DNA from: Chlamydiia bacterium | GTDB taxonomy: Bacteria > Chlamydiota > Chlamydiia > Chlamydiales > Rhabdochlamydiaceae | Assembly: GCA_963804085.1 (NCBI GenBank) | Contig: CAWDOQ010000017.1 | Span: 96,001 to 160,000 of the forward strand | DNA: 64,000 nucleotides | Direction: 5' to 3' | Part shown: piece by piece, positions 8,700-8,835 of the stretch | How the letters are laid out: each line of letters starts with the position of its first letter | Position numbering within the stretch: position 1 is the stretch's first letter | Translations under genes and position numbers: made by a program | The notes under the pieces: generated by a model | Database searches by the model: none | What the model was told of the DNA's origin: nothing | Seen by the model: only the letters and a program-made list of their open reading frames with translations

Positions 8700-8835
8700 T
8701 TTGCGTGTCAGTTAAGAAAAGCAAGCTTTCCCCTACGTGTTCACCAGCTGTGCTGGGACGACAATCTATTGTACTTACACTGACAGATCAGTTTGCGTTG
8801 CGGGGTAATCCACCACTAAGACGTCGATCTTTTGC
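8700..8835 (-). ncRNA. Candidate bridge/seek RNA of the IS110 element
   Basis: Two adjacent stem-loops with internal loops. Loop strands match the target halves (TTTGCGTT 8792-8799; AAGACG 8818-8823) and one side of the donor junction (TTTCCCCT 8727-8734). Boundaries approximate. Confidence 0.65.

Follow-up and report, generated by a model that had tools for sequence, protein, structure and literature searches.

Probable target-binding loop of a bridge or seek RNA at the non-coding 3' end of an IS110-family element from a chlamydial genome

Does the short hairpin that follows the transposase gene of a chlamydial insertion sequence spell out the site at which the element has inserted? Bridge or seek RNAs make a small recombinase programmable for DNA insertion, excision and inversion without double-strand breaks. 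A preliminary description of the window, by which we mean the whole 64,000-nucleotide stretch of DNA that was analysed, had proposed that positions 8785-8830, read on the minus strand, carry such a guide. Our analysis makes it highly probable that this stretch is the target-binding loop of a bridge (seek) RNA encoded at the non-coding 3' end of an intact insertion sequence of the IS110 family. The flagged stretch is one of two loops in this RNA. The mechanism is known, and the locus is a genuine, well-supported example of it in a new host lineage.

The enzyme of the element is encoded on the same strand:

8884..10113, minus strand: intact transposase (recombinase) gene, 409 aa.

Both Pfam domains of the protein, PF01548 (DEDD_Tnp_IS110, E 3.7e-27) and PF02371 (Transposase_20, E 1.5e-23), score above their gathering thresholds. 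The protein also reaches 277.6 bits against NCBIfam NF033542, 'IS110 family RNA-guided transposase' (cut-off 140), in agreement with the preliminary description, which had named the gene an IS110-family RNA-guided transposase. Alignment to the IS621 chains (E 1.4e-16) places the GxD, ExTG and KTDxxD motifs and the serine motif (G--P----S) in register. Residues D12, E62, D98, D101 and S298 are invariant or nearly so among 34 relatives, and their IS621 counterparts are catalytic according to the pertinent passages of PMC11208158. The nearest annotated relatives, from Bacillus, Alicyclobacillus, Burkholderia, Streptomyces and Mycobacterium plasmids, are 49-39% identical and are labelled only 'IS110 family transposase'. 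These matches assign the element to the IS110 family. Its host had been taken to be chlamydial, and the neighbouring TatD protein agrees with this: the four organism-named matches among its best 120 are all from Chlamydiota (Chlamydiales, Chlamydiota, Rhabdochlamydiaceae and Chlamydiae).

The ends of the element were set by a host palindrome that it interrupts and by alignment to the copy in a chlamydial relative, G179. One arm of this palindrome is intact; the second is split by the element into AACGCAAA and AAAGACGC..., with AAA at both junctions. Because the two flanks are the halves of the split arm, as read against the intact arm, the element boundaries fall at 10245 and 8580. The resulting features are:

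8580..10245, minus strand: complete IS110-family insertion sequence, 1,666 bp, excluding one shared copy of the AAA core.
10246-10253, minus strand: left flank, the target left half followed by the core, AACGC-AAA (AACGCAAA).
8554-8579, minus strand: right flank, AAAGACGC..., made up of the core AAA (8577-8579), the right half GACGC and the rest of the split palindrome arm.
10267-10297, minus strand: intact arm of the host palindromic repeat, whose reverse complement is the uninterrupted target sequence.
10206..10245, minus strand: left end, with a variable tip CCCCG, ATG, a hairpin at 10226-10238, CACAAUAAUCG and the subterminal repeat TGAAAATTT at 10206-10214.
8580..8592, minus strand: right end, with the subterminal repeat AAATTTTCA at 8584-8592 and then the tip GGGG.

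The target sequence for the element is AACGCAAAGACGC; uninterrupted on the transposase strand, the target reads AACGC-AAA-GACGC (13 nt). What the two junctions have in common is the 3-nt core alone, and the element has neither long terminal inverted repeats nor a long target duplication. Its subterminal repeat pair (TGAAAATTT / AAATTTTCA) is 9 bp long, starting 32 nt inside the left end and stopping 4 nt (plus the core) before the right end. With the whole element as BLAST query, a single copy was found in the 24-contig assembly.

The genome also bears out the proposal that the target belongs to a host repeat family. Seven further intact copies of the 13-nt target occur elsewhere (0.06 expected), together with 16 copies of its central 11-mer (0.97 expected), and the target copies sit within a dispersed host repeat family. 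A similar palindrome stands uninterrupted at G000:C2 near 336,100. Among other elements, ISPa11 is reportedly a published example of targeting REP sequences. Contigs of a soil-metagenome run (X2), which may stem from the same campaign as the assembly, match the end-pieces 8572-8805 and 9738-10253 with 0-1 differences; their outer flanks differ, yet again end in AACGCAAA and begin with AAAGACGC. Judging from these flanks, run X2 records a second insertion site, in a different copy of the host repeat and with the same 13-nt target. The two sites, like the close target variants used in G179 and G272, fit insertion into a defined sequence in a fixed orientation. Because the assembly holds one copy of the element, mobility in the host rests on this single observation. 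Neither circle junctions nor empty sites were found among the metagenome contigs matching the window. The contig of one relative, L031, has the arrangement right end-core-left end at both contig ends, which fits a circle, a tandem or an assembly artefact.

The 3' non-coding region of the element is 304 nt long, and the target-binding loop begins 54 nt past the transposase stop codon. This places the RNA 3' of the transposase gene, where the preliminary description had put it:

8696..8839, minus strand: core of the bridge (seek) RNA, about 155 nt, two loops, in the 3' non-coding end.
8785..8830, minus strand: target-binding loop, with outer stem AGAUC/GAUCU and inner hairpin GUGG-UGGAUUACC-CCGC.
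8818..8823, minus strand: target guide g1, CGUCUU, the complement of core AA and right flank GACG on the top strand.
8792..8799, minus strand: target guide g2, AACGCAAA, identical to left flank plus core and pairing with the bottom strand.

From 8830 to 8785 the minus strand reads AGATC-GA-CGTCTT-A-GTGG-TGGATTACC-CCGC-AACGCAAA-CT-GATCT, exactly the hairpin that had been described. Since the palindrome gives the ends of the element, AACGCAAA can be identified as the left half of the target plus the core AAA and CGTCTT as the reverse complement of AAGACG. The two loop strands, as had been claimed, match the two halves of the target and overlap the core, and the split-guide layout fits both flanks. 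The base that follows g2, C (8791), is the first base of the left end. When the 331-nt stretch 8560-8890, which includes all of the 3' non-coding region, is folded, the claimed stem, internal loop and hairpin are present in the minimum-energy structure as well as in the centroid, and both methods recover the same target-loop fold from the 161-nt RNA alone.

A chance hairpin, or an intrinsic-terminator-like stem, could merely resemble the A-rich flanks and have no guide role. In keeping with this explanation, the folding stability is ordinary, no better than that of shuffled sequences (z +0.53 for the 331-nt stretch and -0.63 for the 161-nt RNA), and the A-rich composition makes chance matches more frequent: 1076 of 20,000 shuffles contain a sense 8-mer of the target. 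The combined match, however, is reached by only 131 of 20,000 dinucleotide shuffles of the 304-nt region (about 0.7%, from the window alone) under a generous criterion that accepts any sense 8-mer and any antisense 6-mer of the 18-nt target within 60 nt, and no terminator-like site was called at the location of the hairpin. An Rfam search gave six matches at E values up to 10, all far under the gathering scores. It is the relatives, rather than this window-only chance test, that give decisive support for the guide reading.

Comparison of relatives shows the RNA as a three-way structure composed of an outer helix and two stem-loops, each with an internal loop. RNAalifold on five close relatives has the outer helix AUUUGC (8834-8839) / GCAAAU (8699-8704) enclosing the two stem-loops, and the covariance-model R1 match to the window RNA scores 187.7 bits and spans 8678-8850. 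The second stem-loop comprises:

8707..8784, minus strand: donor-binding loop, with outer stem GUCAGU(G)UAAG / CUUAACUGAC and inner hairpin at 8744-8757.
8727..8734, minus strand: donor guide d2, AGGGGAAA, identical to right-end tip plus core.
8763..8773, minus strand: donor-loop 5' strand, UACAAUAGAUU, not complementary to the left-end tip, with same-sense likeness to 10216-10226.

Guide d2 (AGGGGAAA) corresponds to the right-end tip CAGGGG plus the AAA core, minus the leading C. The base that follows it, G (8726), is the first base of the right flank.

A related-locus search with the single transposase protein returned no relative, and the alignment-based scans returned only loci encoding 40-53%-identical proteins and G179. 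Close relatives are few among the genomes sampled: with a 151-nt RNA query, matches came from 2 of the 129 genomes in the host's family and from 4 of 400 sampled across its order, and a sample of 401 genomes of the phylum contained a single close protein match (86%). The G179 relative, with 86% protein identity, lies on a 1,882-bp contig. In genome G272 there are two elements, 388 and 387 bp long, that lack a transposase gene and join the left end to the RNA and right end, as well as one partial copy of the element; G214 holds a decayed fragment. The insertion targets in G179 and G272 are variants close to that of the window, and the left-end hairpin shows compensatory changes among the window, G179 and G272.

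The preliminary description had predicted that the loop strands would covary with the insertion sites, and this is what the relatives display. Target guide g2 of G179 is AUCGCAAA and its left flank is CATCGCAAA, an A>U change in the guide being accompanied by the same change in the flank. Donor guide d2 of G179, AGAGGAAA, has a G>A change that recurs in the right end, CAGAGG-AAA. The g1 guide of G272 is CGACUU (U>A), and the right flank is AAAGTCGC (A>T) in two of the three copies; the right flank of the third, AAAGCCGC, has a one-base mismatch to g1. This covariation of guide and flank inside the chlamydial clade covers three lineages (the window, G179 and G272); roughly 120 close relatives, with 65-99%-identical proteins, are listed in all. 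Such compensatory changes speak against a hairpin that resembles its flanks by chance.

Using a covariance model built from five chlamydial RNA sequences, we found 28 matches in 93 metagenome loci and 44 in 80 genome loci encoding 40-53%-identical transposases, so that the same RNA fold stands beside transposases of many phyla. The 59-row alignment has 91.0% of its cells paired, versus 60.6% when shuffled and 35-49% with partners slid, figures that are favoured by the fitting of this alignment to the covariance model; compensatory (double) changes occur in 36 of 39 pairs.

Guide segments were cut from this alignment by column, which left 50 rows after 9 of 59 with gapped loops had been dropped. 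The exact g2 8-mer is found directly before the conserved left-end motif in 31 of 50 own elements versus 34 of 2426 cross-pairings, and the exact d2 8-mer follows TTTC (or TTAC) at the right end of 30 of 50 own elements, versus 14 of 2196 cross-pairings. Among 27 non-redundant elements, g1 matches on average 2.48 of the four post-core flank bases, compared with 1.29 +/- 0.17 when shuffled (0 of 10,000 as high). The guide rule does not hold in 19-20 of the 50 members, many of which are apparently cut by contig ends or have shifted loops. Of 21 elements, 19 show agreement between the base following g2 and the first base of the left end; the base following d2 agrees with the first base of the right flank in 14 of the 21 and with that of the left end in none. 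Four Dehalococcoidia copies tried as end markers were uninformative, the flanks being common to all four.

The family contains 42 distinct g2 8-mers. With the rule holding in distant relatives that carry so many different guides, we give the chance hairpin practically no credence. Programmability of the recombinase may be inferred from this natural covariation.

The loop strands could also be a captured or duplicated piece of the host repeat that lies passively in the 3' end, for example as a recombination footprint. The host genome is rich in the target repeat, and a strand of the outer helix, ACGCAAAU (8697-8704), likewise resembles the left half of the target; but the loop contains no contiguous copy of the repeat, its two halves being separated by a conserved hairpin and inverted about it. 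Across the family, moreover, unrelated hosts and flanks obey the same positional rule, and the scaffold surrounding the guides is conserved while the guides themselves are variable. We regard capture as extremely unlikely and retain the reading of the loop strands as guides.

The position of the RNA varies within the family. Among the 43 rows with a usable reading frame it lies downstream of the gene in 15 and upstream in 28, and the guide rule is identical for the two positions. In a quick maximum-likelihood tree, midpoint-rooted merely for drawing, 14 downstream elements including that of the window group together (SH-aLRT 95). One further downstream element falls among upstream ones, and RNA position must therefore have changed at least twice.

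A third explanation is that the structure acts as DNA, in the form of a cruciform or single-strand hairpin (cf. IS200/IS605), or as a cis-regulatory RNA, and not as a trans-acting guide. The inner stem bears on this point. Its U-G pair would read C-A on the opposite strand, as the preliminary description had noted in calling the pair specific to the minus strand, and all 5 of the 5 close relatives and 54 of 59 family members retain it. Two G-U pairs are conserved in all, in 52 and 54 of the 59 rows, and are compatible with the transposase strand only; action as RNA rather than DNA is favoured because these pairs fit a single strand. The occurrence of the RNA on either side of the gene in relatives fits poorly with a cis-regulatory role bound to the 3' end. 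RNA guidance has, in addition, been demonstrated biochemically and structurally for the family of this transposase. On the other side stand the conserved left-end hairpin, which could work as DNA, the lack of one expected guide (see below) and the fact that expression and binding of the guide RNA are here predictions from sequence. On balance we consider action as DNA or in cis very unlikely, and the trans-acting guide remains our preferred reading.

By analogy with IS621 and the IS1111 seekRNAs, the RNA would be transcribed in the same direction as the transposase gene, probably forming the 3' portion of its transcript; a linear scan of the element gave no candidate promoter on the transposase strand, and the sequencing runs listed for this DNA include no RNA run. 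The RNA would then bind the DEDD/Ser recombinase, pair with both strands of the host site AACGC-AAA-GACGC, pair also with the joined ends of the excised circular element, and juxtapose the two AAA cores for strand exchange. Pairing at both target and joined ends would thus lead to insertion in one orientation, without net duplication, into the dispersed host repeat.

How the left end is recognised raises a separate question, that of how the donor is handled across this clade. Neither a wobble-pair scan nor column association revealed a guide in the RNA that would be complementary to core and left-end tip, and therefore one of the four canonical guides is missing. The wobble-pair scan for this right-donor guide gave only noisy 6-8-nt matches without a common position. 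The column-by-position association over 30 elements gave no Watson-Crick signal at left-end positions 2-5, compared with an excess of about 20 in the left-flank control.

The left end nevertheless has a layout that is conserved across 30 family members: 4-5 variable bases, CATG, a short hairpin, CACAA, 4-8 variable bases and ATGAAAAT, with GAAAA[TC] at left-end positions 31-37 in 27 of 30. This GAAAA[TC] forms a subterminal inverted repeat with the ATTTTC before the right-end tip, and ATTTTC precedes the donor-guide match throughout the family. The donor-loop 5' strand resembles left-end bases ~20-30 in the same sense, the best 9-nt identity averaging 6.97, whereas shuffling of the pairings without regard to relatedness gave 5.61 +/- 0.15 and reached the observed mean in 0 of 5000 trials; its variable bases follow no clean rule among the three chlamydial lineages. 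The left end may be recognised through the CATG-hairpin-CACAA-ATGAAAAT module, by protein, or by the same-sense donor-loop strand.

These observations tentatively suggest a distinct bridge-RNA architecture in a widespread clade of ~400-aa IS110-type transposases (Chlamydiota, Bacteroidota, Bacillota, Thermodesulfobacteriota and others), a proposal we consider possible but doubtful. Such an architecture would combine one homologous scaffold on either side of the gene (at least two switches), a guide polarity opposite to that of IS621 and three canonical guides. The left end would be handled through a ~30-nt module (variable tip, CATG, hairpin, CACAA and ATGAAAAT) that the donor-loop strand mirrors in the same sense, instead of through core-adjacent pairing. 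If this were true, donor recognition in the clade would be mechanistically unlike that of IS621, and the transposase-less mini-elements of G272 would, as non-autonomous elements, carry their own guide RNA.

The element extends the reach of RNA-guided recombination to an environmental member of the Chlamydiota. It marks a dispersed host repeat as a landing pad, of which seven intact sites are still open. The table of family guides and flanks, with its 42 target guides, amounts to a natural reprogramming experiment and could aid the choice of orthologues for engineering. Among the papers listed in the library searched that link IS110 with Chlamydiae, none, as judged at the level of search results, treats guide RNAs, and a broader search gave the same outcome.

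Comparison with IS621, as its bridge RNA is presented in the relevant passages of PMC11208160 and PMC11208158, reveals a shared plan. Both systems have a DEDD RuvC-like domain and a Ser-bearing Tnp domain, and both have a single RNA with two internal loops, which reads the target halves on different DNA strands through guides that overlap a short core common to target and donor. The single bases after g2 and d2 that match the recombined junctions are reminiscent of the IS621 handshake guides described in PMC11208158. The differences are equally clear in those passages. The IS621 RNA lies in the left end upstream of the gene, whereas that of the window lies 3' of the gene. In the window RNA it is the 5' loop strand that matches the right side, reading the top strand, and the 3' strand that matches the left side, reading the bottom strand; compared with IS621 the polarity is reversed, and the transcription unit thus runs the other way with respect to the recombination sites. 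The IS621 core is CT and that of the window element AAA; in the window RNA, unlike that described for IS621, no guide complementary to the left-end tip was found; and the solved IS621 chain has 328 aa, compared with 409 aa here, at the distant similarity given above. Because RNA position and polarity both differ, the layout is not of the IS621 type.

Other IS110-type systems can be set beside it from their published descriptions. The ISEc21 seekRNA (PMC11187229) and the CazIS110-1 bridge RNA (bioRxiv 10.1101/2025.10.25.684509) share an IS110-type transposase and a two-loop RNA with the window element but differ in having the RNA upstream of the gene; the guide order given for ISEc21 is also opposite to that of the window RNA. 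Some IS110-type elements do have a 3' non-coding region, according to the part of Siddiquee et al. (PMC11187229) that deals with them. ISPpu9 of Pseudomonas putida, compared here by description only, is likewise an IS110-family element in repetitive extragenic palindromes with a small-RNA gene, Ssr9, downstream of the transposase gene, and its RNA-only genomic copies recall the transposase-less mini-elements of G272; in contrast to the role proposed here, Ssr9 is reported as dispensable for transposition in the passages concerned (PMC12288879).

A further correspondence is with the IS1111 seekRNAs. Those of ISEc11, ISPa11 and ISKpn4 are located in the 3' non-coding region with the top-strand match 5' of the bottom-strand match (pertinent sections of PMC11187229). 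The window RNA shares with them the downstream non-coding location, the guide order, g1 (top) and then g2 (bottom), and matches that overlap in the target, and subterminal inverted repeats are present in both groups. The same sections give IS1111 transposases of 330-350 aa, compared with 409 aa here, and a subterminal repeat of 11-13 bp that is followed outward by 7 (or 6) bp at the left end and 3 bp at the right, compared with a repeat of 7-9 bp, a ~31-nt left extension and a 4(+3)-nt right extension in the window family. To the extent that these sections describe the IS1111 group, RNA position and guide order thus fit it, and transposase length and subterminal-repeat geometry do not. An RNA 3' of the gene, with its top-strand match 5' of its bottom-strand match, is the published IS1111 seekRNA rule and involves no new principle.

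The scaffold of the bridge RNA and its guide rule, by which the target guide matches the left flank plus core and the donor guide matches the right end plus core, recur in relatives from Bacillota, Bacteroidota, Thermodesulfobacteriota, Spirochaetota, Chlamydiota and metagenomes. Among the compared loci (L009-L189), 28 relatives have the RNA upstream of the transposase gene and 15 have it downstream, and a quick tree of these loci requires at least two switches between the two positions. As for the protein itself, residues 214-332 of the transposase (window 8884-10113) weakly resemble the NCBIfam TIGR-Tas RNA-guided endonuclease model, scoring 30.2 bits, below its cut-off of 100.

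Another chlamydial genome with relatives of the element, G272, carries the following short copies and fragments:

L191:1380-1767 (G272:C263), transposase-less mini-element
L196 (G272:C285), transposase-less mini-element
L193 (G272:C157), partial copy
L200-L202, left-end-only fragments

The mini-elements at L191 and L196 are 388 and 387 bp long, respectively, and in both the bridge RNA and right end follow the left end and 5′ leader by direct fusion. Both are inserted at AAACGCAAA / AAAGTCGC sites of a G272 repeat. These two copies look like non-autonomous elements with their own predicted guide RNA.

Other relatives show unusual arrangements of copies. On a metagenome contig of 1,556 bp (L031), a single 8-mer, GGATGAAA, serves as both target guide and donor guide, and a right end-core-left end junction is present at each contig end, as would be expected of a circular form, of a tandem copy or of an element inserted into another copy. 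A Dehalococcoidia chromosome carries four copies of a related element (L127, L130, L131 and L133) that have left or right flanks in common pairwise, suggesting that insertions were nested or in tandem, or that copies recombined with each other.

The hexamer GTGGAC occurs 41 times in the window (14 ± 3.6 expected; 0 of 100 shuffles had as many) and forms three clusters with a period of about 9 nt, each with 4-6 plus-strand copies facing 5-6 minus-strand copies:

8361-8521, GTGGAC cluster directly past the right flank of the IS110 element
20383-20524, GTGGAC cluster
36106-36221, GTGGAC cluster

Elsewhere in the host assembly, an intergenic region (L004; G000:C2 near 46,470) is paralogous to window 10250-10420 and shares its upstream sequence. 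There the GCGTCTTTGCGTT repeat is uninterrupted, the insertion sequence is absent, and a similar GTGGAC cluster follows the paralogous repeat. This paralogy suggests that the host genome contains a duplicated gene-plus-repeat unit.

Within the element, the 5′ strand of the donor loop (window 8763-8773) is similar, in the same sense, to a subterminal segment of the left end (10216-10226). The likeness is also found at equivalent positions in 30 relatives, and the two segments vary together across the family. This geometry is not that of a canonical donor guide.
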